In this document: positions 28,931 to 62,893 of the stretch, piece after piece
Numbering within the stretch: the first letter of the stretch is position 1
How the letters are laid out: each line of letters starts with the position of its first letter
Assembly (NCBI GenBank): GCA_044892505.1
Contig: CM097882.1
Coordinates: 572,880,001 to 572,944,000, forward strand
Length of the DNA stretch: 64,000 nucleotides
Source of the DNA: Schmidtea nova
Taxonomy: Eukaryota
Direction: 5' to 3'
Made by a program: the position numbers and the translations under genes
The notes under the pieces: generated by a model
Databases searched by the model: none
The model's input: only the letters and a program-made list of their open reading frames with translations
What the model was told of the DNA's origin: nothing

Positions 28931-29553
28931 AAAAAAGTTTTACAATTTTGAAAATGTTTCTTATATTATTCAAACAACTTTAATAACATTATTCAAACAA
29001 TGAAGATTTTTAACATCAACGATGCTTGAGCAAGAAAACATCAAACATTATATATTTCGAAGATATCATTAATTTAAATTACAAATTTACATTACTTTTA
29101 AATAGTTAATTATTTATTATATAAATTTATCCTTTATAAAATTTATTTTATAAATATAAAATTAATTAATATTTCATACTTTATTAAATTAATTATTTAT
29201 GTAAATTAAATTAAATTAAATATTTAATTTAACTTAATGCTTACCCGGCAATTTTCATAATTGATAATATTTAATATTATTTTTAGGACTTTATCATCAT
29301 AATAGGTGGATTGATACTAATTTGGTAAAAGTTTACTTAAATTAAAAAAATCGCTATAATACTTAAGTAAAAACTGAATTAAATAGATAAAATATAAGTA
29401 CAATAATCAAAGAAAAATATTTAAAATATCATTTAATTAAAATTTGTTATAATAATTAATCTTTTAATTGTTTTAATCCACAGCCCCTAATAAAATTCAA
29501 TTATAAAAATAATTAAAAATAATCAATTTTAATTAATTAATTTTAAATATTCA

Positions 29554-30264
29554 ATGGATCCAAATTTGCCTATTACTCACATTATTTTGGATTTAGACGG
29601 ACTTTTAATAGATTCCGAAATCCTATTTGATGCGGCAATAAATGAAATATTAAAACCCTTCAATAAAACAATGAATTTTGAAATTAAAGAAAATTGCTTA
29701 GGGAAAAAACTATCAGAAAGTATTGCTATAATTATTAAATTGCTCAATGTTCCATTAGATGAAACTGACTTTATTTCACGGTATCAAGATATCAAGCACA
29801 AGGTCCTTCGAGATATTCAACTAAAAGAAGGAGCAAACAAACTAATAAATTACTTTTGGGAAAATGAAATACCCATGGCGATTGCAACTGGGTCGTCTGA
29901 TGAGAGCTTTGCTTTAAAAACTAAAGACTACAATGATTTATTCTCGAAAATACATCACAAAGTCTGCTCTGGAAGTGATAAACTCGTGAAAAAAACTAAA
30001 CCTGCTCCAGATATTTTTATTGAAGCTGCGGGACGATTTTTATCTGGTTTACCATTGTCACCAAGACAAGTTCTCGTTTTTGAAGACGCCGCCAACGGAG
30101 TTATAGCTGGATTGTCGGCAAACATGAAAGTAGTTTGGGTTCCAGATTCAAGAGTTAACACCTCGACTTTTAAGAATCATCCTGACGTTATGATTTTGAC
30201 AAGTTTGAAAAAGTTTCCACCTTCAAAATATGGTCTACCCGTATCTTCTGAATTCGATCCATAA
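29554..30264 (+). CDS. PUDP: HAD-superfamily phosphatase, pseudouridine-5'-phosphatase (HDHD1/PUDP, Gs1-like) type, 236 aa, intronless
   Basis: All four HAD motifs are intact: DLDGLLIDSE, ATGS, KPAPDIF, FEDAANG. Complete from ATG to TAA. Confidence 0.85.
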   Translation: MDPNLPITHIILDLDGLLIDSEILFDAAINEILKPFNKTMNFEIKENCLGKKLSESIAIIIKLLNVPLDETDFISRYQDIKHKVLRDIQLKEGANKLINYFWENEIPMAIATGSSDESFALKTKDYNDLFSKIHHKVCSGSDKLVKKTKPAPDIFIEAAGRFLSGLPLSPRQVLVFEDAANGVIAGLSANMKVVWVPDSRVNTSTFKNHPDVMILTSLKKFPPSKYGLPVSSEFDP

Positions 30265-40753: not shown

Positions 40754-41617
40754 TCAAATAGAATATAATTTACTACGATATGGGAGACGAAGTAATTCGG
40801 GTTTAAAATTCTCTAAATTATCTATAACCATTAAATTTTTATGAAAATCATGTAACGATACATCTATTATCGGATCCGCGATCCAAACAACTTTCATTCG
40901 AGCGGCTAGTGCTGCATCAACACCATCAGCGGTGTCTTCGAATACCAAAATGTTGTAGGGTCCAGATGGAACGTTGTCTTTAAATCGAGAAGCAGCAATT
41001 TCATATATAAATGGTTGGGGTTTTCCTTGGCGAGCTTCAGGGTCAGAACCGTAGCATACAGCGAAACTGATTTTATCAAATATCAGCTTGTGACGTGAAA
41101 TTTTGTATTTGTAATTTTCTTCGTTAGATTCTGTGACAACTGCCATTGGCATTTTGTGTTTCCTAAAATATTCGATGATTTGGCTGACACCGGGTAACAA
41201 TTCAACGTTCTTCAACAAGCATGGCGTTGATTCTTTATAATAATTAATGAATTCTTTCCTTGTCATGGGTAATCCTAGCTCCTTGACAATTATCTTCGCG
41301 GCACTTTCTATTCTTTTATTTTTCAATTTACGTTTCAAAGACAACGACAAATACTTTTCATACGGGTAGCATAGTTTATTTACAAACAACTCGAAATACC
41401 TTACTGAATTCAACAGTACTCCATCCAGATCAAAAATAACGTGTGTAATGGGCGCATTTCTAATTTCAATATCATTTAATTCCAGACTTTTTGGACTTTT
41501 GTCTTTTTTAGATTTTTTGTCATTTTTATTTTTCGGACTTCCACTTTTGTTGGGGCTTCCTTTTTTTGGACTACCTTTTTTGGGACTTGTTTTTTTAGGA
41601 CTACTGCTTTTCGGCAT
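40754..41617 (-). CDS. HAD phosphatase (HDHD1/PUDP-like paralogue) with an N-terminal SPKK-repeat basic tail, 287 aa from ATG
   Basis: DLDGVLLNS, VTES, GKPQP, FEDTADG. N-terminus MPKSSSPKKTSPKKGSPKKGSPNKSGSPK. Open and intronless. Confidence 0.85.
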   Translation of the reverse strand: MPKSSSPKKTSPKKGSPKKGSPNKSGSPKNKNDKKSKKDKSPKSLELNDIEIRNAPITHVIFDLDGVLLNSVRYFELFVNKLCYPYEKYLSLSLKRKLKNKRIESAAKIIVKELGLPMTRKEFINYYKESTPCLLKNVELLPGVSQIIEYFRKHKMPMAVVTESNEENYKYKISRHKLIFDKISFAVCYGSDPEARQGKPQPFIYEIAASRFKDNVPSGPYNILVFEDTADGVDAALAARMKVVWIADPIIDVSLHDFHKNLMVIDNLENFKPELLRLPYRSKLYSI

Positions 41618-42000
41618 ATTGATCAAAATTTAATTATTGTCGGTTGATTATAATTTTAATATTGAATAGTAATTTTTTAAATTTTATTTCATATGATTAT
41701 ATGTAAGATTTAATAATTTAATAATTTTTTTATTTTCAGACTATAGATTAAAAATATATTTTCATCTTATTTAAAGCAATATATTTGATAAAGGGAGTGC
41801 CGAAAAATTCGTTTGAATAGAAAAAAAAATATTTTTGATCTAATGAAAAATAGAAAATAAATGAAATAAATGAAAATAAAATTACCAAAAGATAAGAGAT
41901 AAAGTATGAAATTATTTCATAATTTTTTTTTACATAGTATATCATTGAAAGAAATATAAATGGTGCCTTAATGAAATTTTTAATTGACAGTATAATTTTG

Positions 42001-42747
42001 GGTGTCAGGACGAAATTACACAAGACGAAATTACACAAGACGAAATTACACGAGACGAAATTACACAAGATGAAATTACACGAGACGAAATTACACAAGA
42101 TGAAATTACACTGAGACGAAATTACACTGAGACGAAATTACACGGGATGAAATTACACAAGACGAAATTACACTAATAATAATTTTTAATAATTTATTAA
42201 TAATTTATTAATAATTTAATAATTTAATTATTATTAATTATTATTATTAATTATTATTAATTATTATTAATTATTATTAATTATTATTAATTATTATTAA
42301 TTATTATTAATTATTATTAATTAATTATTATTAATTATTATTAATTATTATTAATTATTATTAATTATTATTATTAATTATTATTAATTATTATTAATTA
42401 TTATTAATAATTATTAATAATTTAATAATTTATTAATAATTTATTAATAATTTATTAATAATTTATTTAAACTTTTTACGCATTTTTTTTATTAAACTTT
42501 TTATTAAAACTTTTTATTAAACTTTTATTAAAATTTGAACTATCTTTTTAATTTTATTTTTTACTATTTTTTAGTGTAATTTCGTCTTGTGTAATTTCAT
42601 CCCGTGTAATTTCGTCTCAGTGTAATTTCGTCTCAGTGTAATTTCATCTTGTGTAATTTCGTCTCAGTGTAATTTCATCTTGTGTAATTTCGTCTCGTGT
42701 AATTTCGTCTTGTGTAATTTCGTCTTGTGTAATTTCGTCATGTAACC
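42001..42747. mobile_element. Foldback/Mutator-type non-autonomous element
   Basis: Perfect 9-bp TSD ataattttg (41992-42000, 42748-42756). Long TIRs built of ~15-bp tandem units gacgaaattacacaa around an (attattaatt)n centre. Confidence 0.9.
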
Positions 42748-42824
42748 ATAATTTTGGTATTTGAGTGTAAAGTCATTTACATTCATATAGAAAACATAAT
42801 AAATATTATTGAATTGACATTTAA

Positions 42825-45924: not shown

Positions 45925-46778
45925 TGTTGGGGTTGTTATAATCACAGAAAATAAAATTAAAATTGCACAAATCAATAAAAATATAAAAATTGGAAAAATA
46001 ATAATTAATGTTCAAACATTAATTAAAAACTTTACAAAAAATTAAAATAAAGTTTGAGCGAGGGAAACTGGTATGGGAAGATGCCAAATGAGGAGACGAA
46101 TTCAAATATGGGTATATAAAATTGAAATAGGACCCCCAGAAAGAGAAATTAAGAAAATACAAATTAATTAAAAAATAATTAATCGTCTAATGGAAAACCC
46201 GAGCCAATGGGAAACCCGAGCCTATGGGAAACCCGAGCGATGGGGGAAACCCGGGGCATCAACAAAATCATTTAATTATCGAAATAAATTTAATGCCCCG
46301 AGAAGAGACGAAAAACCATTAGCGGCGAAACTCAATTAGGCGGCGGTCAAACAAATTTAATTATCTCATTTTCTCCAGATCCAATTAAGCCGACAGGATG
46401 ACAACAAAAAAATAGTATATAAACGGAGAGCAAATTGCCGATATCGCCATTTGGTCAAAGACAAAGTTTCGAGGCCAACCGATTGAAGAATAAAAGTAGG
46501 CAACGTGAATCAAATCGTTAGAAGACATTTGAAGGAGACGTCGAAAGAAAACCAAAAGTAGAGTTTATACTTAATCTATTGCGTGTCAGAGAGGGAGATA
46601 TCCCATTGGGTGTTCTACCCTCACGCGAAGAGTGCAGAACCGGCGTAACTTTTTGTGATAAAAAGAGTTGTGATCAATTGACAAATAAAGAAAGTTATTG
46701 TGTTGGGTCTTGTTTATTTTGTAATTGAAAGAGAACACCGGAGTCAGAAACTACCGACTTAACACCAATAACCCAACA
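45925..46778 (+). repeat. 5' LTR
   Basis: Direct repeat of 62040-62893. Differences seen at 46061/62176, 46378/62493 and 46705/62820. Confidence 0.97.
46416..46423 (+). promoter_or_regulatory. Candidate LTR TATA box (TATATAAA)
   Basis: Mid-LTR position downstream of the repeat array. A similar aaaatagtata(t)aaa occurs in solo LTR 16633-17548. Confidence 0.55.
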
Positions 46779-46782
46779 TATT

Positions 46783-46800
46783 TGGTGAGCCCGACGTGAT
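46783..46800 (+). promoter_or_regulatory. Primer-binding site, tRNA-Trp type
   Basis: TGGTGAGCCCGACGTGAT lies 4 nt after the LTR. Its complement ATCACGTCGGGCTCACCA matches the 3' end of metazoan tRNA-Trp as I recall it (ATCACGTCGGGGTCACCA) at 17/18. Confidence 0.85.
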
Positions 46801-47163
46801 CAGAGTCGGTGAAACGTTGTTAAAAAAAAAATATAATAATAAAGAATCAAAAGAAAATTATTGATAAATCCGACGTGATAAAAGTCGGTGAAGCGTTGCA
46901 AAAAGAAATCGAATATTTATTGGCAAAAAGAAATTAAAAGTTGCTAAAAAGTTTGGAAATTGTGAAATTGATTAAAAGAAAAAAGTCAGTAAATCGAATC
47001 AAGGTTTGATAAAAGTTTGTTGATAATTGTGGAAAGATTTATACTGTTGAAATTAAAATAAAAGGTAAAATTTATAATTGATATATTAAAATTTAGAAGA
47101 GAAAAAGTTGTACCAAACCGACCATATTACGAATTGAGAAGTAATAAACAACCAGAAACAAAA

Positions 47164-50100
47164 ATGAGTAATACAAACAATCAGGATGATACGCCCATGT
47201 CCACCAGCAACGGCAATGGCAATGACTATGCTAGCTGCCAGAAACTGCCAGTAAATCAGTATGGAGGCGATCCAGTGGAATTCGTTGATTTTATGGCGGA
47301 TTACTACATGTACGCTACAGCCTATGGATGGAGCCAAGCGACAATGGTGCAAAGATTGCCACTATATCTGAAGGGAGCAGCGAGAGAAGCCTGGCAACAA
47401 ATTGACAAAAGAACAATTGCGAATGACTGGACGAAATTGAAAGATGCCTTAGCCGCGAAACTAATTGGAGGGGATATAAAACGGATAATGCGGCAGAAGT
47501 TCTATAATCGAGTGCAAAAATCAGAGGAATCGGTAAGTGAATTTGCGTACCACTTGACTACTCTTGCAGAGAAAGCATTCGAAGTAAAGCCGGAACAGAT
47601 TGAAGTGGCAAAGCAGGTGAAAGAATTGTTACAAGACCAGTTCTTAACGGGAGTCAAAAAGGAGATCAAAAAGGCATTATGTTATGTGGACTTCAATAAC
47701 TTTGATGAGTTAATCAAAAAGGCGATGAAAATTGAGTTAAATCTGAAAAGTTCACAGCAAAAATCAGAATCGTTTGCCATCATCAATGAACCCAGAGAAC
47801 GGTCCATAACTCCAGTCAGAAACAATCGGCTTCAGCAATCAATTAGTCCATCACCAACGTTTAGACAAAGATTTGAGCCAAATAAATCAACAAATGTTCA
47901 AATTGATGAAAAAGAGAGGCCAATTCAATGCAGCCATTGCCAACGAATAGGACATCATGTTAATCAATGTTGGTTCAAAAATAGATCTCCAAAAAGTCCA
48001 ACTCCAATTCAGTGTGATTATTGTCAAAGGATGGGACATAACAGCAATCAATGCTGGTCTAAAAACAACGTTCAACGAAGCCCAAAACGAATGTGGCCAG
48101 ATTGGTTGAAGGGTAATGGTGAGAAAAGTTTTAATAAACTAAATTTTAATGATCAGCGTAATAACGATAATGTGCAATGTTACAATTGTGGAAGGAAAGG
48201 ACATGTCTCTCGGAATTGTTTTGCTAGATCGAGGTCTCCATCAACTTCGCCATCCCCACAAAGAGATAGAGTGAACCTTCAAGGGCAAATTCAATGTCAT
48301 TCATGTAGAGGGTATGGACACATGGCTAGATCATGCCCGAGGAATGTCGACAAATTTCAGAAACCTATATTAAAAAAATCAATAAGATTTCAAAATGATA
48401 AACTGCAGACAGACAACGTGGCTTTTGTTCAATCAGATGATTTCAATGAAAAGATTGAAAACCAAGTGAAAGAAATGGGTCGACGTTTAGATCGTTTAAT
48501 GTCCAAGTTTGAATCTGATGATGAATTGGATAATCACATGATGTATGGATCGCAGCAAGACATGACAGAAGCTGACACGACAACTGGGTGTACAAAAGAC
48601 GATTTGGAAAGCGAAAAGGCTACCATGATGATGAAAAGACTTGAGAAATTACTAGAAGCTAGCGTGGAAGAATCATCTAAAATATTGGTATCGGTTAAAA
48701 GCCTGAGTCAAATGTCGTTAAGTATGAGAAAATTGAAAGGCGCGATTAATTTGTGTGCTAATTATTATCAAATAAATGTAACAAATAGAGAAGAAATTAA
48801 AGAATTGATGAGAAAATTTGGGAAAGCGTTTCGAGAAAATAAATGGTTAGATTTTATTTCTATTGATGTTGTTAATGAAAATGATAAAAATGTGATTACT
48901 TGTCGTTGTGAAGCCTATGATCGCGTAAAAGATTTAAAAAGGAGACTAAGAGAGAAATGTGAAGGCTGGGTAGTCGAATTAAAGTTTAAAAATAGAGATT
49001 TAGAAAATGATGAATATTTAATAGATTGTGGTCTTATACCAGGGAACAAAAATGAATTACAAATAGCCAGTATGATGAGTAACAGTGAAATGACAAGAAG
49101 TGATCCGATGCAAATAGTAAAGGAGCTAAATGATGTTTTATGTATTGGTGACGAAAACGAAATTAAAGAAATAGTAAAATTAATAGAGGAATCTGAATTT
49201 GGGCAAAAGGAAAAATTAGAACTTGCTAATGCGATACGACCCTATTTGTTTAGAAGAACGGGATATAGACAATGTTTAAAGAGAATAATGAGAAAATTGG
49301 GTAAAGAGCTTAGAAAAGATAGAGTTGAGTTAAATTCGTTAACAATTGCAATAGAATATGAAGATATTGGGAAAACTGAGTATGTAGAGGAACACTGGTG
49401 TACGAAAGTTCGAAAAGTGCGTAAAAGAGCTGCGGAAATGTTAGGTAAAGATGGAATTATAGTGCTGAGATATAAAGGGGAAGAATTGGATGACGATGAA
49501 TATTTATATGACTGCGGATGTGTGCCACAGGAACTGGATGAATATGGGTATTTAAGTACTAATGGAAGTCAGGGGTATTTGATAAATCGCATAATCGCAA
49601 ATAAAGAATATAATTCGAGGATGCTTGACAAAGTTGAATTTTCAGACACAGATGAGCAAACAGAAGAAATAAAGGAAAGCGAAATTGAAATAGTTACTGA
49701 TGATTATAATGGGGAAAAGAGGGTTAATAATAATGCTCAGACAGCAGAAATGGCAGTTATTGAAGATACAAATATCGAAAAAGGTGAAATAAAAAGTGCG
49801 AATACGAAGACTAGAACATTGTATGAGATGAAGAAAACCTTAGTAAAATTAGAGCAGGAAGTTGAAGAAACAAGTGACGTAATAAGAAATTTGGTTGGAG
49901 TCGTATACCCAATTCTAAAAATAGAAACAGAAACGGAAGAGGAATTGAAAGGAATAGTAGATGAAGTGAAAATCAGACTTCCAGGAGTAGTGCGGAAATT
50001 GGGCAAAGAGGATAGCTTTTGTAACTGTGAAGTAATAGAAAAGTTGATCGAAAATGGGATCGATAAAGAAGTAGTGCTAATAATTCTAACCTACGTTGTT

Positions 50101-53100
50101 TCAGAGATCGGTATTCATGCATTTACAAAGTCAGACAAGCTTGATAATTTAATTGACATTGCGGCTCGACTAATAAATGAGTCTTTAATTAATTGGCTGA
50201 GAGAGCGTGGAGGGTGGAAAACATTAAATTTATCGATAATAAAGAAAAGAAAGAAACCGGAAAATGATTCACCGCAAAGGCAATTAAACGGAAGAGTAAG
50301 TCCAAAACTAAGGAAGACGATGATATTCCCTTGGATAATGTTCATGATGATTATTCTATGTGCAGTTATTGCACAAACGACGTCATTGGTGGCATACGAT
50401 TGTTCACAAACCGAAATGGGGAAAATTTACTCAGTGGTTGATATGTCAGAGTGCCCAGACGCATACCCTCGAAAATTAAAGATTGAAAACGAAGTAAAAT
50501 ACCATGTGTATCAAGAGTCAGATTTACGGCGTACTAAAGTTAGAGAATGCATTGTAAAACGAACCACTTTTGTATTCTTCTGTGGTAAATGGAGCCATAC
50601 GTCATTAATCAAAATGCACGCCATTCCACGACCGGTGGATGTATTGCCGGAAAATTGCTTAACAGCCTTCCAAACGGGGGAATTAAAAATCAGCCCTGAA
50701 ATTCGATTAAAAGCGAAATTAAATCATCAAATTCGAGAAACATTAGTGGTGAAGGGAGTGATGAAATCAGACGGTGACTGTGAAGGTGAACCGTATAAAA
50801 TAAATGAGAAAATAATTAAACACACAGTGGTAATAGAGGAATACTTAACCGAATTGAGAATGTTCGAAGGATCTTTTGATGATGATACCGGAAAACTACA
50901 AACTCACCCATTTTGTAATATGAAGCAAACTAGTTGTCACACGGGAGAGTCAATCCTCGTTTACGATGTTAAAACCAATATATGTAACCTGGCTCATTTA
51001 AAAACAATGAATTTCAAAGAGTTAACCGGAGAGCAATTTAGGGAGAGACCAGACAACTTTAATATGAATTATAAACAAAATGGCACAGTAAGGTCAACTC
51101 CACTGTGGACAAGACAAACAGCGATGGTTTTAATGTCAACCTTGCCAACGGACAGCATGCGCTTTATTAAAAAGGAGATTACGAGCAAATGTGGTCAAAC
51201 AGTCTATGTAACAAATTACAAAGGAGTATATGTGGCAAAAACGACTGTACATGAAGCGAAGACGAGAATTCACAGAGATGATATAAAACTAACTCATTAT
51301 TTTAATAATAAAATTGATTATTTATTTCATTTTAGCCAAAATACCATGGAGAACATATATAGAGAAATGATCTTGAACGATTGTAAATTGAATAAAGAAA
51401 TACTTCGAAATCGAATGGCGATGGCGGTTACAAACCCGAATTTAGTAGCACCCATGCTAATTTCAGAAAATGGTATATTTGCTAGAATCTTTGGAGAAGC
51501 GCTATACAGTTACCGATGCAAAGAAATTACAGTGAAAATCGCAAAATATGAGAAATGTACAAATGAATTGCCAGTAAGTGTTGGCGGGAAACTACGATTT
51601 ATGGAACCGATAACCCGAATACTGCTGGAGGAACAAGTTAAACCAAAAACCTTGCAATGTAATCGATTATTAGCTCCATTATATCGCTTAGCACAAGATT
51701 CATGGATAGCGCTACCAGATTACCGAGGAGTAAGAACACCAGATAAATTGGAATTGACGAATTTGGAATACTTAATAAATTTTACATCAATGAATAAAAT
51801 GGCACAAATGGGTTTATATGCGAGCGAAGACATCGAAGAAGCCCAAAGAAATTTGTTATTTCCGTCAAAAAAGGAACGCGTGATTTCAGAAATGATTGAT
51901 ACCATATTGCCGAATGGAGAAGGGAAAGTTAACTACGAATACTTGCTGACACCTGATCATTTTAAACGAGCTACTTACAAAACAATGGAAAAGATTTGGG
52001 GAAAATTTATGTTTTTGGGACAAGCCTGTGCAGGTTTAATTGGTATTTATGTAATTGCAGTAACGGTAAAGGTGATAATATCACAAGTATTGTCCACTCA
52101 CAGGATATATACAATTTCCGGATGGTCATGGAAAATGATAATTGGTTGTATTCCATTTTTGGCTAGATTCTTCATTACAAGTCATCAATACAAAGAAATG
52201 GCAAATGTACGAGCGCAATTGAGAAATGATCAGAAAAGCGAAGAATCAATATGCGATCATGAGGATAAAAATAATGGTCCTGATAATGAGAACGGTGGCG
52301 GCAGATCAGAGCAAAATAATTTTCGAAGGAGCATAATGAAAAGTAGAATAGAACCCGAAACCAGGCTCTTGCTTGAACCAATGCCAAAATTAACAGGAAT
52401 TGACACTCTTTCTAAATGGTACACACCAACATTAATACCAACAGCTCCAATATACCCAAGTGAAAAGTTGAGAGAAATGAAGCCAGTTGATGAGATTAAA
52501 ATCGAACTAGAAAAGATTGAGCCATCAAGCGCCGAAATTGAAAGAAAGAACATGCTTGGGTTACCATGTAGTTACGCATTGATGACAATAGAAATTGGAG
52601 GAAAACAACCTAGAATATCCATACAGTTTAATGAAAGAAAAGTGGAAGCATTATTGGATTCAGGCTCGAGTCACAGTATAGTATCGGAGAGTTTCTTAAC
52701 GAGACAGGAAAAAGCGAAAATAAAGCCAACAACAAAAATTATTAAATCAATGACGCATAACGTATTAAATATTATTGGAAAACTAGAAGTAAAGTTGAAT
52801 ATAGGAAATCAGGAAGTAATTCATTGGGTATCAGTAATGAGAAAAAGCCCTGTCAAATGTTTGATTGGCATGGATATCATGGAACAATTACAAGGAATCT
52901 CACTGGACTTAAAGACGGGCAAATTAATAAAAAGGCAGACTGATGAGGTAGTGCATGAAGCAGGAGAGGTCTTTTTAAATCAAACGTTGGAAGTACCACC
53001 AAAAAGCGAAGTGATATACTACGCTAATGTAGAAAATGTTTCCGAAGAAGAGTGTATATTCGAACCAAATCAAAAACTAATAGAAAAGTACGACGTACCT

Positions 53101-56100
53101 ATGTGTGACGAAATAGTAAAAATTAAAGACAAAACCGTGCCAGTAAGAATAGCTAATTGTAGCACAAAATCTGTTCAGATGAAACCCAAAACAAAGTTGG
53201 GAAAACTGTCAAAAATGAAAGGGGAAGAAGTGCAAAAACTACCTAGAAATATCAAAATCTATAAAGAACCACAAGTGACAAGTGATGATCTAACAGAGGC
53301 ACAAAGACAAGAATTTGCGGCATTATTGAAAAGGTATAAAAATGCATTCGCGAAACATGAGTATGATCTAGGACTCACTCAGATAATTGAACACGAAATA
53401 CCATTGCTTGATGAAACTCCTATAAAAATACGACCGTACAGAATTCCATATATACATCAAGAAGAAAGCGATCGGCAAATTAAAGCCATGAAGGAATTCA
53501 AAATAATAAGAGATAGTTCATCACCATTCTCATCCTCAATAGTAGTAGTGAAAAAGAAGGACGGTGAATTACGATTTTGTGTTGATTATCGGAAATTAAA
53601 CCAAGTGACAAGAAAAGACACATATCCTATACCAGTTCCGCAAGAAATGTTTGATCAGATGGGAGAAGTACAATTCTTCACAGTAATCGATCTTAACAAA
53701 GGATATAACCAATTTAAAGTCAAAGAGGAAGACAGGAGAAAAACGGCATTTTCAGATGGGAAAGGACTATATGAGTTTAATGTGCTGCCATTCGGTCTAA
53801 CGGGAGCACCAGCTACATTCCAGAGAGGTATGAATTTTGTTTTGCGTGATATACCACATGCATTAGTCTATATTGATGATATAATAATATTTTCAAACAA
53901 TTTTCAGGGACACTTAAAAGATGTGGAAATAGTGTTTAAACGACTAATAGAAGCCAATTTAAAAATAAAACCTTCAAAATGTGAATGGGGAAAATCAGAA
54001 GTTGTTTACGTAGGGCACATAATTTCACGGAGAGGGTTACAACCAAACCCAGAAAATGTAGAAAAGATCAAAAAGTATCCGATCCCCAAAGATGCGGATC
54101 AAGTCCGACAATTTCTTGGATTAGCGAGCTATTATAGGAAATTCATAAGGAATTTTTCTCATGTAGCACAACCTTTAAACATGTTGCTAAAAAAGCAGAC
54201 TAAATTCAAATGGGTAACAGCTCAACAAGAAGCATTTGATAAATTAAAAGAGAGTCTTATTAAACAACCAATATTGAGATGTCCGAACTTCAAAAAACCA
54301 TTTATACTGATGACAGATGCAAGCAATTTTGCATTAGGAGCAGTACTTGGACAGCAAGTAGAAGGTGAGAAAGATCACGTAATTGCTTATGCAAGCCGTT
54401 CATTAAAACCGCATGAAAAAAATTATTCCACAATCGAAAAAGAAACGCTAGCATTAGTATATGGGATAACTAATTTTCGACAATATTTGGTTGGGAGAAA
54501 GTTTATTGTATTTACGGATCATAACCCATTACAATGGTTAATGAAGCATCGAGATTCGGCAAGCAAGCTGATTAGGTGGTCAATTGCATTACAGGAGTAC
54601 GATTTTGAAATTAAGTACCGTACGGGGAAGTCAAATGGAAATGCGGACGCAATGTCGAGAATCCCTGAAGAAAATATTATTCAAAATGAAGTAAATTATG
54701 AAAATACGATATTTATGGCAATTAAAACGGCAAATAATATGAAGGAATTACAGGGTGATCAGGAAAACGATGTTGAAGTGAATCAATTGCGGAAACATGC
54801 TGTCACAATAAAAAGAGAAAGTGACTGGAAGCACATTGCGAAAGAAAAACATAAATACGTCATCCATGACGGGTTGTTGAAATGTGTGAAAAATGAAAAC
54901 TTATTAATAGTAGTACCGGCAAAACATCGAACAGCATTACTGTTGTTGTATCATGATGGGGCATTGGGAGGGCATTTATCTGCTCGAAAAACATTATCAA
55001 GATTAAAACAGAAATATTACTGGGATACGATAGAGCAAGACGTCAGACAATGGTGTCACACTTGTGAAGTTTGTCTGACCAGGCGAAACACAGGAAGAAA
55101 AATAAAAGTTCCTTTAAAACCTATGACCGTGCCGGTAGCACCAATGGAAATGACAGCAATGGATATTGTTGGTCCACTACCAGAAACAACCAATGGCAAT
55201 AAATATATCATCGTATTTTGTGATTACCTAACAAAATGGCCGGAAGCATATGCAATGCAGAATCAAAAGGCAGAAACTGTTGCGAAAATATTTGTAGAAA
55301 ACATCATATTTCGGTACGGAGCACCAAGAAAATTGCTCACAGACCAAGGAACAAACTTTCAAAGCGAATTATTTAAATCTATAACCGAATTATTCGGAAT
55401 CCTAAAACTTAATACATCCCCATATCACCCACAAACAGATGGGTTAGTCGAAAGATTTAATGGAACATTAATTAACATGATTTCGTCGTATGTAAACAGG
55501 AAACAAAAAGATTGGGATTTGTTCATTAAGCCATGTTTGTTTGCATATCGAAATGCAGTGAATGAAAGCACCGGTGAAACACCATTTTATCTTATGTACC
55601 TACGACGAAACAATATGCCGATTGACTTAAAGTTTCAACCACCAATCTCACAATACATGGACGTATCCGATTACAAAGTAGTAATGCAGGAAAGACTGCA
55701 ATCAGTATGGGTCAAAGCGGGATTGAAAATAAGGCATAATCAAGAAGCATATAAAGAATGCTATGATAAACGTGCGCATGCACATGATATTAAAGTTGGA
55801 GATTTGGTGTACATAAATAAACCAGAGCCAACGAAAGGGCTGTCTACCAAACTACAGCGACCATTTAAAGGACCTTATTTGGTGTGTGATACAACCGAGA
55901 CGAATTTAAAATTGCGTCCACAAAATAATAAAAAGGCGGGAACGATTGTCATTCATGTAAACCGATGTAAGAAAGTTCCGCTGGAAGAAAGATATCCCTT
56001 GAGGTCAAAACCAAGTAACGGCGAAAAAGAAAAAGTAATTAAACAAAAATTTACAAAAAACCCTACTCAATTAAACTACCTAAGTAAAACGTTGTTGATA

Positions 56101-57267
56101 ACAACAGTGATGATGATCAATGTTTTGTGTGCGTCGGCAATACGAACATTCCCAGCATATGCAATGAAGAAAGTCCCATTATTAGAAAAGATCGATGTGT
56201 ATTCAACATGTACCCAAATAGTATGGATCTATTATTGCGAAGTGACGGAAGAAATAGAGATAAATAATCTGCTAAACTATTTCGAGCCCCCAGTAAAATT
56301 AAACTATAACAAAAATACACATGTCGCTCGTGAATTAGCAATGAATTATAAATACCCTTGGATAATAACACGAGTGAATCTTAAAGATAATTTGACAAGA
56401 GTCCATGATCTAATACGTGTCAGTGTATGGACAAAAAGACTACAAGACCGCGTATCCATTGAACCAGTAATCAATGGAATTAATGTATATTGGAACTCTC
56501 ATGAATCCCAGCAAGTAAAAACTGTCTTTCAAAATTATGCTATCGATACACTGAACAGCAGAAAACCATTTATAAAATATGTTAATTTAAAATTATTTCA
56601 GATGTATAATATTCAGATACAATATTTTGAAAAGTTGTTGTATGAAAATGGAACAGACAGCACCGATCAGTGGGTTCTAATCCATTCCAGTCAACACACG
56701 ATAAACTTGATCAATGAAACAAACAGAGTTATCTTTCATGTGTATAATCAGACGATAAATGTCACCCGTCAAACGTACCCCAATCAAAGAGCTGTTTTAT
56801 ACTATTGTGGAAAAGTACAAGGAATATTAGAGAACAGAAATGAATCAAAGATCTTATCTTTCCGACAACTACGGTCAAAATCAAACTCTAAAATAGTGCT
56901 AATAAAAATCAAGTATTATCGGCGAGCCAAATACTCCAATCTTTGGCAATTAACCTTGGTAGAGGATAAATTTGTTCGAGTGTCATATACTGAGATGGAC
57001 AGTTACCCACGGAAGTTAAATCAATCAACGCGAATCACAACCGCTCACATCAAGGTGTTAAATCCAAGCAATAAAACTATATCAGCTTCACCTACGGAAA
57101 ATGAATTTCTATGTGTAACATTATTAATAACAATTATCATTATAACAATATTTGTCATTATTCTCATATCTGTCATCATCTTTGAAATTCGAAAAACTGA
57201 AAGACATTCTACGAATCAATCCGAGGCCCCGAGACCTTGGATCGATTACGAGGAGACGTTTGTATAG
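47164..57267 (+). CDS. Single polyprotein Gag-Ubl-Ubl-Bcl2-like-Env-PR-RT-RH-IN-second glycoprotein, 3367 aa from the first ATG
   Basis: Uninterrupted 10.1-kb ORF. The track start at 47134 is a TTG; the first ATG is at 47164. Domains are listed separately. Confidence 0.95.
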   Translation: MSNTNNQDDTPMSTSNGNGNDYASCQKLPVNQYGGDPVEFVDFMADYYMYATAYGWSQATMVQRLPLYLKGAAREAWQQIDKRTIANDWTKLKDALAAKLIGGDIKRIMRQKFYNRVQKSEESVSEFAYHLTTLAEKAFEVKPEQIEVAKQVKELLQDQFLTGVKKEIKKALCYVDFNNFDELIKKAMKIELNLKSSQQKSESFAIINEPRERSITPVRNNRLQQSISPSPTFRQRFEPNKSTNVQIDEKERPIQCSHCQRIGHHVNQCWFKNRSPKSPTPIQCDYCQRMGHNSNQCWSKNNVQRSPKRMWPDWLKGNGEKSFNKLNFNDQRNNDNVQCYNCGRKGHVSRNCFARSRSPSTSPSPQRDRVNLQGQIQCHSCRGYGHMARSCPRNVDKFQKPILKKSIRFQNDKLQTDNVAFVQSDDFNEKIENQVKEMGRRLDRLMSKFESDDELDNHMMYGSQQDMTEADTTTGCTKDDLESEKATMMMKRLEKLLEASVEESSKILVSVKSLSQMSLSMRKLKGAINLCANYYQINVTNREEIKELMRKFGKAFRENKWLDFISIDVVNENDKNVITCRCEAYDRVKDLKRRLREKCEGWVVELKFKNRDLENDEYLIDCGLIPGNKNELQIASMMSNSEMTRSDPMQIVKELNDVLCIGDENEIKEIVKLIEESEFGQKEKLELANAIRPYLFRRTGYRQCLKRIMRKLGKELRKDRVELNSLTIAIEYEDIGKTEYVEEHWCTKVRKVRKRAAEMLGKDGIIVLRYKGEELDDDEYLYDCGCVPQELDEYGYLSTNGSQGYLINRIIANKEYNSRMLDKVEFSDTDEQTEEIKESEIEIVTDDYNGEKRVNNNAQTAEMAVIEDTNIEKGEIKSANTKTRTLYEMKKTLVKLEQEVEETSDVIRNLVGVVYPILKIETETEEELKGIVDEVKIRLPGVVRKLGKEDSFCNCEVIEKLIENGIDKEVVLIILTYVVSEIGIHAFTKSDKLDNLIDIAARLINESLINWLRERGGWKTLNLSIIKKRKKPENDSPQRQLNGRVSPKLRKTMIFPWIMFMMIILCAVIAQTTSLVAYDCSQTEMGKIYSVVDMSECPDAYPRKLKIENEVKYHVYQESDLRRTKVRECIVKRTTFVFFCGKWSHTSLIKMHAIPRPVDVLPENCLTAFQTGELKISPEIRLKAKLNHQIRETLVVKGVMKSDGDCEGEPYKINEKIIKHTVVIEEYLTELRMFEGSFDDDTGKLQTHPFCNMKQTSCHTGESILVYDVKTNICNLAHLKTMNFKELTGEQFRERPDNFNMNYKQNGTVRSTPLWTRQTAMVLMSTLPTDSMRFIKKEITSKCGQTVYVTNYKGVYVAKTTVHEAKTRIHRDDIKLTHYFNNKIDYLFHFSQNTMENIYREMILNDCKLNKEILRNRMAMAVTNPNLVAPMLISENGIFARIFGEALYSYRCKEITVKIAKYEKCTNELPVSVGGKLRFMEPITRILLEEQVKPKTLQCNRLLAPLYRLAQDSWIALPDYRGVRTPDKLELTNLEYLINFTSMNKMAQMGLYASEDIEEAQRNLLFPSKKERVISEMIDTILPNGEGKVNYEYLLTPDHFKRATYKTMEKIWGKFMFLGQACAGLIGIYVIAVTVKVIISQVLSTHRIYTISGWSWKMIIGCIPFLARFFITSHQYKEMANVRAQLRNDQKSEESICDHEDKNNGPDNENGGGRSEQNNFRRSIMKSRIEPETRLLLEPMPKLTGIDTLSKWYTPTLIPTAPIYPSEKLREMKPVDEIKIELEKIEPSSAEIERKNMLGLPCSYALMTIEIGGKQPRISIQFNERKVEALLDSGSSHSIVSESFLTRQEKAKIKPTTKIIKSMTHNVLNIIGKLEVKLNIGNQEVIHWVSVMRKSPVKCLIGMDIMEQLQGISLDLKTGKLIKRQTDEVVHEAGEVFLNQTLEVPPKSEVIYYANVENVSEEECIFEPNQKLIEKYDVPMCDEIVKIKDKTVPVRIANCSTKSVQMKPKTKLGKLSKMKGEEVQKLPRNIKIYKEPQVTSDDLTEAQRQEFAALLKRYKNAFAKHEYDLGLTQIIEHEIPLLDETPIKIRPYRIPYIHQEESDRQIKAMKEFKIIRDSSSPFSSSIVVVKKKDGELRFCVDYRKLNQVTRKDTYPIPVPQEMFDQMGEVQFFTVIDLNKGYNQFKVKEEDRRKTAFSDGKGLYEFNVLPFGLTGAPATFQRGMNFVLRDIPHALVYIDDIIIFSNNFQGHLKDVEIVFKRLIEANLKIKPSKCEWGKSEVVYVGHIISRRGLQPNPENVEKIKKYPIPKDADQVRQFLGLASYYRKFIRNFSHVAQPLNMLLKKQTKFKWVTAQQEAFDKLKESLIKQPILRCPNFKKPFILMTDASNFALGAVLGQQVEGEKDHVIAYASRSLKPHEKNYSTIEKETLALVYGITNFRQYLVGRKFIVFTDHNPLQWLMKHRDSASKLIRWSIALQEYDFEIKYRTGKSNGNADAMSRIPEENIIQNEVNYENTIFMAIKTANNMKELQGDQENDVEVNQLRKHAVTIKRESDWKHIAKEKHKYVIHDGLLKCVKNENLLIVVPAKHRTALLLLYHDGALGGHLSARKTLSRLKQKYYWDTIEQDVRQWCHTCEVCLTRRNTGRKIKVPLKPMTVPVAPMEMTAMDIVGPLPETTNGNKYIIVFCDYLTKWPEAYAMQNQKAETVAKIFVENIIFRYGAPRKLLTDQGTNFQSELFKSITELFGILKLNTSPYHPQTDGLVERFNGTLINMISSYVNRKQKDWDLFIKPCLFAYRNAVNESTGETPFYLMYLRRNNMPIDLKFQPPISQYMDVSDYKVVMQERLQSVWVKAGLKIRHNQEAYKECYDKRAHAHDIKVGDLVYINKPEPTKGLSTKLQRPFKGPYLVCDTTETNLKLRPQNNKKAGTIVIHVNRCKKVPLEERYPLRSKPSNGEKEKVIKQKFTKNPTQLNYLSKTLLITTVMMINVLCASAIRTFPAYAMKKVPLLEKIDVYSTCTQIVWIYYCEVTEEIEINNLLNYFEPPVKLNYNKNTHVARELAMNYKYPWIITRVNLKDNLTRVHDLIRVSVWTKRLQDRVSIEPVINGINVYWNSHESQQVKTVFQNYAIDTLNSRKPFIKYVNLKLFQMYNIQIQYFEKLLYENGTDSTDQWVLIHSSQHTINLINETNRVIFHVYNQTINVTRQTYPNQRAVLYYCGKVQGILENRNESKILSFRQLRSKSNSKIVLIKIKYYRRAKYSNLWQLTLVEDKFVRVSYTEMDSYPRKLNQSTRITTAHIKVLNPSNKTISASPTENEFLCVTLLITIIIITIFVIILISVIIFEIRKTERHSTNQSEAPRPWIDYEETFV
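47242..48336 (+). other. Gag: capsid-like region plus four CX2CX4HX4C zinc knuckles (47929-48336)
   Basis: YGGDPVEFVDF...LPLYLKGAAREAW, RVQKSEESVSEF, DQFLTG. Knuckles CSHCQRIGHHVNQC, CDYCQRMGHNSNQC, CYNCGRKGHVSRNC, CHSCRGYGHMARSC. Confidence 0.92.
48853..49065 (+). other. Ubiquitin-like domain 1 in the polyprotein
   Basis: ISIDVVNENDKNVITCRCEAYDRVKDLKRRLREKCEGWVVELKFKNRDLENDEYLIDCGL follows the ubiquitin pattern (..ITLEV.PSDTI..VK.KI...LIF.GK.LED..TL.DY.I). Confidence 0.75.
49339..49596 (+). other. Ubiquitin-like domain 2 in the polyprotein
   Basis: TKVRKVRKRAAEMLGKDGIIVLRYKGEELDDDEYLYDCGC is paralogous to domain 1 (L.[FY]K...L..DEYL.DCG). Confidence 0.7.
49900..50230 (+). other. Bcl-2-like domain
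   Basis: BH2-like LINWLRERGGW (50185-50217) is preceded by a hydrophobic helix (GIDKEVVLIILTY, BH1/alpha5 position) and a BH3-position helix (VVRKLGKE), and followed by a hydrophobic anchor. Confidence 0.65.
50386..52180 (+). other. Chuvirus-type (class III-like) envelope fusion glycoprotein with preceding signal segment (50320-50385) and TM (52006-52090)
   Basis: LVAYDC start, DGDCEG, CGQTVYVT, FNNKIDY, DCKLNKEILRN..AMA..NP, GEALYSYRC, CTNELPV..FMEPITRIL, GLYASEDI....LLFP, WGKFMFLG...AGLIGI, GWSW. This motif order is the one I recognise from chuvirus glycoproteins. Confidence 0.85.
52580..52920 (+). other. Aspartic protease
   Basis: VEALLDSGSSHSIV (DSG at 52657-52665) and LIGMD. Confidence 0.92.
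53400..54200 (+). other. Reverse transcriptase (Ty3/Gypsy type)
   Basis: SPFSSSIVVVKKKDGELRFCVDYRKLN, LPFGL..APATFQR, YIDD (53869-53880), YVGH, FLGLASYYRKFI. Confidence 0.97.
54300..54670 (+). other. RNase H
   Basis: LMTDASNFALGAVL, YSTIEKETLA, VFTDHNPL, NADAMSR. Confidence 0.96.
54940..55980 (+). other. Integrase (HHCC, DDE, GPY/F)
   Basis: YHD..GGH, CHTCEVC, MDIVGPLP, TDQG, YHPQTDGLVERFN, FKGPYLV. Confidence 0.96.
56092..57267 (+). other. Second predicted type I membrane glycoprotein fused after integrase
   Basis: Signal-like LLITTVMMINVLCASA, then ~320 aa with 8 N-X-S/T sequons, then a 28-aa hydrophobic TM (57106-57189) and a 25-aa tail. Family not recognised. Confidence 0.7.
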
Positions 57268-57663
57268 TGAGATACAATTATTTGCATGCAATTATGGTAG
57301 ATTAATAGTTTAGTATCTAGTGACATTTTCTTTTATAATTGTTTCATGTGGATCTGCACTCTTCGGCATGGGAAAGTGGGAAAGTGATTTGATTGGCTAA
57401 TACTAAAAGAGTGAGGGGGTAGAAAAAGGGATAGAAAAATCAAAAGGGGGGTATATAAGGTAAACTTAGACATCATAAAATTTAAATTAATCTTAAACAA
57501 AAGTAAAATTTCAAATAACTAAGAAAACTTCAATTAAATCGGTAATTTTATATTTTTATTTATACCGCTACCAACTAAGACAGTATCCTTTGGGTACTCC
57601 ATCTTAGTCCTAGCGTCAAAATTAAATTAATTCAAATTTAAATTATAATCGTTTTAGTAAGAA

Positions 57664-59112
57664 ATGGAGCAGATACAATGGGCCAGAGAAACGTACGACA
57701 GCTATCTGAAGATGATGAGAAATCATGCCGGCCAAAGAAGATTCCAGATAGTCAACAATTTGCAAATTCCAAATTATCTAAGGTTGGACGACAGAAAAAT
57801 GAAAGTCCAAGTATTCACTATAGACAGAAAATCAAAATTTCAAATGACAAAGGAACTAAAAATATCAGATAAAGACGAATACTATATCCACGTCATCAGA
57901 GGGACGGTGGAAATTCTAGACGAAAATGATCAAATATGGTGGGAGATCAAAAAACTTTCGTCATGGAAAATCAAGGAGCCAGCAATCGGGAAAATATTAC
58001 GAGCAGCAAACGAGGATGCCACAATTGTAGTGGAAACAAGGATCAAAAACGAAATTGATGATGTACCCAGCGAGGAGCCAATGCAGAAAGAAAATCTTGA
58101 ACTCCTACAAATAACAAAGGAAATGTTAAAAAGAAAATTGTCCTTTATTCGGAGGGAAATGGGTATAGAAGAAATTCGGAACAAAATATTGTTCATTGAT
58201 GCCGAATATGGAACCAGCATGACTGGAAAGATGATTCCCTTGGCGGTGGCCATTATGAACTATTACGGGAAAGTTGTGAAAAATGTCTTCTTAACACCTA
58301 GAGGAAGACTCAAACATTTCAATTCAAACATCCATGGAATAACGGAGGTGGCGAGCCGAAATCAAAAAGACCAGTACGAAGAGATGAAGGAAATCCAAAA
58401 ACTGACAATCGGGAAAATACTCGTAGGACATGACCTACATGCAGAATTACAATTCCTAGGGATATGGGTAAATCATCTTTATGGCATACGGGATCTAGCT
58501 ACTGCTCAAGCGTTGCAATTGAAAGGAGTGACAAGAAGAGGGGAATGGTATAAGCTCAAAACCATAATGAAGGAACTCTATGGAGAAGAGATGCAAATGG
58601 GTATTCACTCAGCTTTAGAGGACGTCAAAAGCATTCGGAAGATATATTTGGGACTAGAAAACCTTTGGATCGATGATATATCAATGCCTAAGATAGGGCC
58701 ATCAAAAAAGTATTCATTGCAAGAATATAAAACTAGGCAACATATGGAATCGATATCTGAAATTCCCAGATTAGAAAGAACGATAATGATCGTAGACGAG
58801 ACAAACATGGAAGTGGATGAAATAGATACAGGAACAGAAAAGAGTAATCAAAAGTTGAAATGGGCAACTGAAATGTATTTAGAGGAGATTGAAGAGAATT
58901 GCGAATGGATGGAATCCACAAAATTAACAAGAATCCAATTATCGATGGAATATGGCCCAATGGAACAAAAGGAGGATCGCAAAAGGAAAGCTTCAGCATC
59001 CAACGTCGACGTCGGGGAAACAATGACCATCAACGGGGTGGTGTATGAAAAAGAAGAAACAATTATCAGATATCGAAATGGGGCAAAGCGGCTGGAAATG
59101 AAAATGAACTAA
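57664..59112 (+). CDS. ORF2, 482 aa, with a central REX4/ISG20-like DEDDh 3'-5' exonuclease domain (~58186-58650)
   Basis: FIDAEYG (Exo I), IHGIT, KILVGHDLHAEL (Exo II), IRD, YKLKT, MQMGIHSALED (Exo III). Confidence 0.85.
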   Translation: MEQIQWARETYDSYLKMMRNHAGQRRFQIVNNLQIPNYLRLDDRKMKVQVFTIDRKSKFQMTKELKISDKDEYYIHVIRGTVEILDENDQIWWEIKKLSSWKIKEPAIGKILRAANEDATIVVETRIKNEIDDVPSEEPMQKENLELLQITKEMLKRKLSFIRREMGIEEIRNKILFIDAEYGTSMTGKMIPLAVAIMNYYGKVVKNVFLTPRGRLKHFNSNIHGITEVASRNQKDQYEEMKEIQKLTIGKILVGHDLHAELQFLGIWVNHLYGIRDLATAQALQLKGVTRRGEWYKLKTIMKELYGEEMQMGIHSALEDVKSIRKIYLGLENLWIDDISMPKIGPSKKYSLQEYKTRQHMESISEIPRLERTIMIVDETNMEVDEIDTGTEKSNQKLKWATEMYLEEIEENCEWMESTKLTRIQLSMEYGPMEQKEDRKRKASASNVDVGETMTINGVVYEKEETIIRYRNGAKRLEMKMN

Positions 59113-62039: not shown

Positions 62040-62893
62040 TGTTGGGGTTGTTATAATCACAGAAAATAAAATTAAAATTGCACAAATCAATAAAAATATA
62101 AAAATTGGAAAAATAATAATTAATGTTCAAACATTAATTAAAAACTTTACAAAAAATTAAAATAAAGTTTGAGCGGGGGAAACTGGTATGGGAAGATGCC
62201 AAATGAGGAGACGAATTCAAATATGGGTATATAAAATTGAAATAGGACCCCCAGAAAGAGAAATTAAGAAAATACAAATTAATTAAAAAATAATTAATCG
62301 TCTAATGGAAAACCCGAGCCAATGGGAAACCCGAGCCTATGGGAAACCCGAGCGATGGGGGAAACCCGGGGCATCAACAAAATCATTTAATTATCGAAAT
62401 AAATTTAATGCCCCGAGAAGAGACGAAAAACCATTAGCGGCGAAACTCAATTAGGCGGCGGTCAAACAAATTTAATTATCTCATTTTCTCCAAATCCAAT
62501 TAAGCCGACAGGATGACAACAAAAAAATAGTATATAAACGGAGAGCAAATTGCCGATATCGCCATTTGGTCAAAGACAAAGTTTCGAGGCCAACCGATTG
62601 AAGAATAAAAGTAGGCAACGTGAATCAAATCGTTAGAAGACATTTGAAGGAGACGTCGAAAGAAAACCAAAAGTAGAGTTTATACTTAATCTATTGCGTG
62701 TCAGAGAGGGAGATATCCCATTGGGTGTTCTACCCTCACGCGAAGAGTGCAGAACCGGCGTAACTTTTTGTGATAAAAAGAGTTGTGATCAATTGACAAA
62801 TAAAGAAAGTTATTGTGTTAGGTCTTGTTTATTTTGTAATTGAAAGAGAACACCGGAGTCAGAAACTACCGACTTAACACCAATAACCCAACA
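62040..62893 (+). repeat. 3' LTR
   Basis: Direct repeat of 45925-46778, followed by the TSD AAAG. Confidence 0.97.

Follow-up and report, generated by a model that had tools for sequence, protein, structure and literature searches.

Planarian retroelements of the Ty3/gypsy type are known to carry ubiquitin-like domains, as the published description of Burro/GYPSM1 places a Ubi2/SUMO-like domain (PF11976) between MATH and BCL-2, and an in-frame env between BCL2 and the protease (Arkhipova and Yushenova, 2019; PMC6431247). Multi-copy errantiviruses with the order GAG-ENV-POL and an envelope of the HSV/gB type have been described from Platyhelminthes (Chary and Hayashi; PMC13524379). Here, we analyzed an element of this kind in a stretch of 64,000 nt from Schmidtea nova (GCA_044892505.1, contig CM097882.1, positions 572,880,001 to 572,944,000, forward strand), which is called the window below. 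A single open reading frame (ORF) of this element encodes Gag, Env, and Pol, and includes two ubiquitin-like (Ubl) domains between the nucleocapsid (NC) and a Bcl-2-like domain. A sequence-only reading of the window had missed the Burro publication. The two segments are predicted ubiquitin-fold domains within anciently duplicated units of helix bundle plus Ubl, and we see roughly an even chance that these units are non-conjugated docking adaptors for host proteins, next to the Bcl-2-like domain.

Two units of helix bundle and ubiquitin-like domain

The sequence-only reading had marked two tandem domains of about 70 aa at 48853-49596 (aa 598-845 of ORF 47062-57267) and had placed them after NC and before the Bcl-2-like domain, an order that Pfam scans of the ORF bore out. 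Their paralogy was confirmed, with 26 of 94 aligned residues identical (E 2e-10); the shared L[KR][FY]K begins at aa 640 in the first segment and at aa 802 in the second, while L..DEYL.DCG begins at aa 647 and 809, respectively. When the first 1,100 aa were shuffled 20,000 times, this second motif never arose; as it was drawn from the same sequences, the result shows only that the pair did not arise by chance. Two Ubl domains are indeed present, but they comprise about 80 aa each and are not adjacent, being separated by some 80 aa that include a predicted four-helix bundle. As a homologous helical stretch also precedes Ubl1 (Table 1), the repeat unit has about 160 aa, consists of a helix bundle followed by a Ubl, and starts upstream of 48853; the boundaries drawn initially had missed the helical half.

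Fold prediction, proposed earlier as a check, resulted in a beta-grasp model of Ubl2 and no confident model of Ubl1. The predicted fold of Ubl2 is confident except for the last strand (model residues 151-160, where the predicted local distance difference test [pLDDT] is about 50), and the model of helix bundle plus Ubl2 has a predicted template modelling score (pTM) of 0.75. With Ubl1, the single-sequence model was poor (pLDDT 44) and no Ubl was found from it. Its predicted ubiquitin fold is based on a six-sequence profile, for which the 60 PDB matches listed were nearly all from the ubiquitin family (Dsk2 UBL, E 8.9e-5), plus the paralogy to Ubl2. No subgroup of the ubiquitin family stands out: PF11976 (SUMO/Rad60-SLD) matches the window segment weakly (E 0.011, 15.9 bits vs. 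a cut-off of 23.8) and 3 of 14 members at E<=0.5, and its fold-match Z is tied with other Ubls.

In this genome, the region had 2,212 candidates, of which 144 were scored matches. An open frame of 3,401 aa was counted by eye in 19 rows and one of 3,402 aa in three, and over 801 nt only 0-3 nt distinguish the first 30 loci from the window. Seven families (A-G, one to four copies each, A being that of the window) were read in this genome, and all of them have the unit, with two in A, B, C, D, and G and one in E and F. Outside this genome, P0005 and P0008 encode Gag and one unit. At the loci L053 and L056, the first Ubl-like stretch is degenerate, and it is accompanied by one complete unit as well as by a Bcl-2-like stretch and gB.

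Conservation across copies, which had also been suggested as a check, was evident at the level of selection. In a comparison of one A copy with one B copy, the ratio of nonsynonymous to synonymous substitution rates (dN/dS) was 0.20 (0.08-0.44) for Ubl1 and 0.11 (0.04-0.23) for Ubl2, and both Ubls are thus under purifying selection. The helical halves gave 0.12 (unit 1) and 0.53 (0.25-1.17; unit 2), the Bcl-2-like region 0.38, and reverse transcriptase (RT), RNase H, capsid, and envelope 0.01-0.04, with 0.02 for the capsid. In a tree of 17 units, which left out unit 2 of family D (missed by the pattern) and units too near a sequence start, the unit-1 copies were recovered as a clade (100/99), whose unit-2 counterparts cluster with single-unit elements. 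With Ubl-only data, forcing the four A/B units together was rejected in the approximately unbiased (AU) test (p-AU 0.0003). The trees and this rejection indicate that the unit duplication is older than families A-D and that the copies were not homogenised.

Ubiquitin surface and proposed role

We mapped 22 units on the natural ubiquitin from locus L062. The hydrophobic Leu8-Ile44-Val70 patch is not conserved, although some relatives are hydrophobic at 44. The Ile44 position has Ile in 3/22 units and a charged residue in 11/22, including Lys (Ubl1) and Arg (Ubl2) in the window; Leu8 is kept in 0/22 (Asn/Glu in the window) and Val70 in 4/22, positions 8 and 70 being aligned less surely. Glu54 and an aromatic residue at 55 are each present in 21/22 units, and Gly60 in 22/22. 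In agreement with the sequence-only reading, no Gly-Gly follows the motif within 30 aa in either window Ubl, and none of the 22 units has Gly75-Gly76 or a Gly-Gly past the last strand. Family D has one GG, in the loop preceding the last strand. Motifs of the late-domain type, which by analogy with known L-domain motifs would serve in budding, lie outside Gag between envelope and protease; families B, D, and G likewise have both types (PTAP, YPxEKL), and in C only YPxEKL is present. The absence of the Ile44 patch, the lack of di-Gly, and the separate late motifs disfavor cleavage-signal and Ile44-mimic models and fit an integral adaptor, as the sequence-only reading had proposed in preferring an interaction module over a cleavage site.

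A processing signal like the ubiquitin inserts of pestiviruses seems barely conceivable to us. The placement between functional modules of the polyprotein would suit it, and ubiquitin inserts of bovine viral diarrhea virus (BVDV) are among the fold matches, but a Gly-Gly past the last strand is absent throughout and the element has its own protease. Ubiquitin mimics that engage proteasome receptors, ESCRT ubiquitin-binding domains, or deubiquitinases in the manner of ubiquitin are distinctly improbable, and the decoy function that the sequence-only reading had considered for the proteasome or ESCRT is disfavored with them. The predictions do give a true ubiquitin fold, and the hydrophobic residue at 44 is retained in some relatives. 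Neither PTAP nor YPxxxL was found before the protease in the single-unit families E and F, and ubiquitin fused to Gag is reported to replace a late domain and to drive ESCRT budding, but only with L8 and I44 (PMC2958808), positions at which the window Ubls differ, and five families have late motifs elsewhere. More weight is due to a structural tether, which we nevertheless consider rather unlikely: the units would be a spacer from capsid and NC to a C-terminal membrane anchor, a matrix stand-in that needs no host partner, so that capsids would assemble where the envelope is made. Only about 20 aa separate the first Met from the capsid region, the first hydrophobic anchor is located behind the units and the Bcl-2-like domain, and the pTM of helix bundle plus Ubl suggests a packed unit. 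However, families with long open frames have one or two units, the two units keep separate lineages and are not interchangeable, and their dN/dS is well above that of the capsid.

The helical half could also be a captured TFIIS N-terminal domain (TND) or LEDGF integrase-binding domain (IBD), a likeness that we had noted ahead of testing, and the unit would then be a nuclear tether or decoy for chromatin or transcription factors. We regard this as improbable, and no less doubtful is a clan of flatworm envelope-bearing elements in which a TFIIS/LEDGF-type IBD was fused to a ubiquitin fold in Gag-Env-Pol and duplicated into two specialised copies. The likeness consists in a helical bundle of about 80 aa and weak profile matches, namely to Elongin A TND (E 0.95) and, in register (profile 9-55 on chain 7-55), to LEDGF IBD (E 0.37). 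Among 580 sequences (10 TNDs, 10 reversals, and 560 background windows; 530 scored), a host LEDGF-like IBD ranked first and one host TND second, but the other eight host TNDs ranked 45-258. No match is significant, unrelated helical proteins outrank LEDGF, and the hhalign probability is 2%. A host-TND profile scored 16 helical halves no better than reversals (P 0.33), and no TND or LEDGF family is among the Pfam families listed for 12 or 15 members. Moreover, the model has four helices, whereas the TND is described with five (PMC9987994). If the resemblance were real, the retroelement would itself encode a counterpart of the host tether hijacked by the integrase of human immunodeficiency virus (HIV), and a TND/IBD-like helical half would bear on chromatin access by non-lentiviral elements. 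Separately, some 30 short TFIIS-N-terminal-domain matches, arrayed in tandem with a spacing of about 1.2 kb, were seen at G000:C1:216191207-216252340.

For units that dock host proteins, the topology can be outlined as follows. As in other signal-anchored polyproteins, the part comprising Gag, NC, both units, and the Bcl-2-like domain would lie in the cytosol and be held by a tail anchor after release of the envelope. The units would face the cytosol, signal peptidase would cut off the envelope, the element's protease would cut off Gag, and after both cuts the units would remain with the membrane-anchored Bcl-2-like piece. Binding might occur via a family-specific acidic/aromatic face (positions 52-60 of ubiquitin), and some of this face may pack against the helical half. 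The likely purpose would be to modulate, in the particle-making cell, either host survival or signalling by ubiquitin/SUMO.

Several points weigh against such an adaptor. There is some circularity in the conservation seen at positions 54-60, as the pattern used for locating the units held those residues; L053 and L056 were themselves found with this motif, and their degenerate first Ubl (5.4 and 7.9 bits) is devoid of it. The Bcl-2-like match in the window family is under the Pfam cut-off, the dN/dS values are based on a single pair of copies, and support for the unit-1 group is weak (81/84) in the Ubl-only tree (19 rows).

The element and its surroundings

The element measures 16,969 bp between the outer ends of its long terminal repeats (LTRs). 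Its flanks are consistent with a 4-bp AAAG target-site duplication, which together with the three LTR mismatches argues for a young insertion. A primer-binding-site-like stretch lies just 3' of the 5' LTR (46783-46800), presumably resembling the 3' end of tRNA-Trp. Along the ORF, the Pfam matches are ordered Gag, CCHC knuckles, weak Bcl-2, gB-type fusion protein, protease, RT, RNase H, and integrase. The Bcl-2-like domain of sister family E scores about 30-35 bits, and the best PDB matches of this domain are to Bcl-xL (E 0.06). The first clear membrane segment of the ORF follows this domain, whose core contains a weaker hydropathy peak; this segment likely both anchors the Gag-side product in the membrane and serves as the envelope signal. 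About 500 aa past the integrase (~55700-57264) match no Pfam family above cut-off and end with a strong transmembrane (TM) segment, and this tail is possibly a second membrane protein.

Table 1. Coordinates of the element's features in the window
Feature	Position	Strand	Remarks
5' LTR	45925..46778	+	854 nt, TG...CA; 3 mismatches vs. 3' LTR
Gag-Env-Pol, one ORF	47062..57267	+	first Met 47164; 3,401 codons from stop to stop
Gag capsid region	47230..47751	+	Retrotrans_gag, E 1e-6
NC	47929..48336	+	four CCHC knuckles
Helical half, unit 1	48607..48840	+	aligns with helical half of unit 2 (homologous)
Ubl1	48841..49077	+	no di-Gly; Lys at Ile44 position; profile matches
Helical half, unit 2	49105..49317	+	predicted four-helix bundle; AlphaFold2 block pLDDT 88-93
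Ubl2	49324..49566	+	predicted beta-grasp; no di-Gly; Arg at Ile44 position
Acidic linker	49594..49806	+	net charge -11; fast-changing, 43% identity family A vs. B
Bcl-2-like domain	49894..50229	+	PF00452, 23.4 bits (cut-off 31.4), E 9.2e-5
Hydrophobic segment	50314..50370	+	hydropathy 2.15; between Bcl-2-like domain and envelope
gB-type fusion glycoprotein, C-terminal TM	50377..52278	+	PF24664 (Monjiviricetes, gB-type), E 2e-87
PTAP + YPSEKL late-domain-type motifs	52438..52470	+	in the spacer from envelope TM to protease
Protease, RT, RNase H, integrase	52603..55431	+	gypsy order
ORF2, RNase T-type exonuclease domain	57661..59112	+	PF00929, E 6.9e-6; inside element
3' LTR	62040..62893	+	preceded by purine tract

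Ubiquitin-family domains were also seen at other loci. A frame of 1,699 aa (L062:2657-7753, one copy read) encodes a near-intact ubiquitin ending with Gly-Gly, preceded by stretches that we take to be HECT-, glutathione reductase-, and Hsp70-like and followed by what is presumably a Pao/BEL-like Gag; about 100 rows share the 62.6-bit score of this ubiquitin. A high-copy cassette (L066:3925-9339 and L067:1-729) begins with an ORF for a helical stretch, a SUMO-like domain, retropepsin, and ankyrin, and continues with TRAF (RING, zf-TRAF, MATH) and the RING end of a BIR-bearing ORF. The Ubl of this cassette reaches 14.7 bits with the unit profile, and the helical stretch of the cassette ranks only 14th. 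Elsewhere in the window, 42001-42754 is a large inverted repeat of 15-nt tandem units that resembles a miniature inverted-repeat transposable element, and two HAD-hydrolase ORFs (29533-30264, + strand; 40754-41629, - strand) enclose a Pao fragment, with hAT and Tc1/mariner pieces nearby.

Comparison with known systems

With its LTRs, gypsy Pol order, and Env between Gag and Pol, the window element belongs to the published GAG-ENV-POL gB-type group. It shares this order, the gB-type Env, and the multi-copy state with Smed_errantivirus_1/2, and the Env of Smed_errantivirus_1 matches window aa 1142-1233 at 78/92 residues (85%, counted by eye; PMC13524379). The main text of that paper contains neither 'ubiquitin' nor 'Bcl' and does not describe the accessory region. 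Burro has the same order of one ORF with Gag, CCHC, a Ubl before BCL-2, an in-frame env, and protease, RT, RNase H, and integrase. However, Burro exceeds 30 kb and its ORF1 has about 4,900-5,100 aa, and Pfam gave no match at E<=0.1 to its MATH/TRAF, BIR, or ankyrin cargo in either ORF of the window element. In the window element there are two Ubls, both paired with a helical domain, whereas the review's description of Burro mentions no helical partner. Set against that published description, our element resembles Burro, but its size and cargo are not those of a Burro.

The results define the accessory module more exactly than the single earlier published account that we found, as a helix bundle plus Ubl in one or two copies that is conserved within a clan of recently spreading planarian-type retroelements, and steer work away from cleavage and Ile44-mimic models. 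As the particles are made in long-lived, stem-cell-rich hosts, the partner of the module could show how retroelements handle host survival pathways. Compared with other integral (type II) Ubls, such as the Dsk2/Rad23 UBL, the SUMO-like domains of Rad60/NFATC2IP, and ISG15/OASL, those of the window are without the Ile44 patch, and the tandem Ubls of ISG15 are joined, whereas the window Ubls are separated by a helix bundle. The arrangement is a variant of a published layout and thus largely known; new are the missing Ile44 patch, the old duplication, and the two-domain unit.
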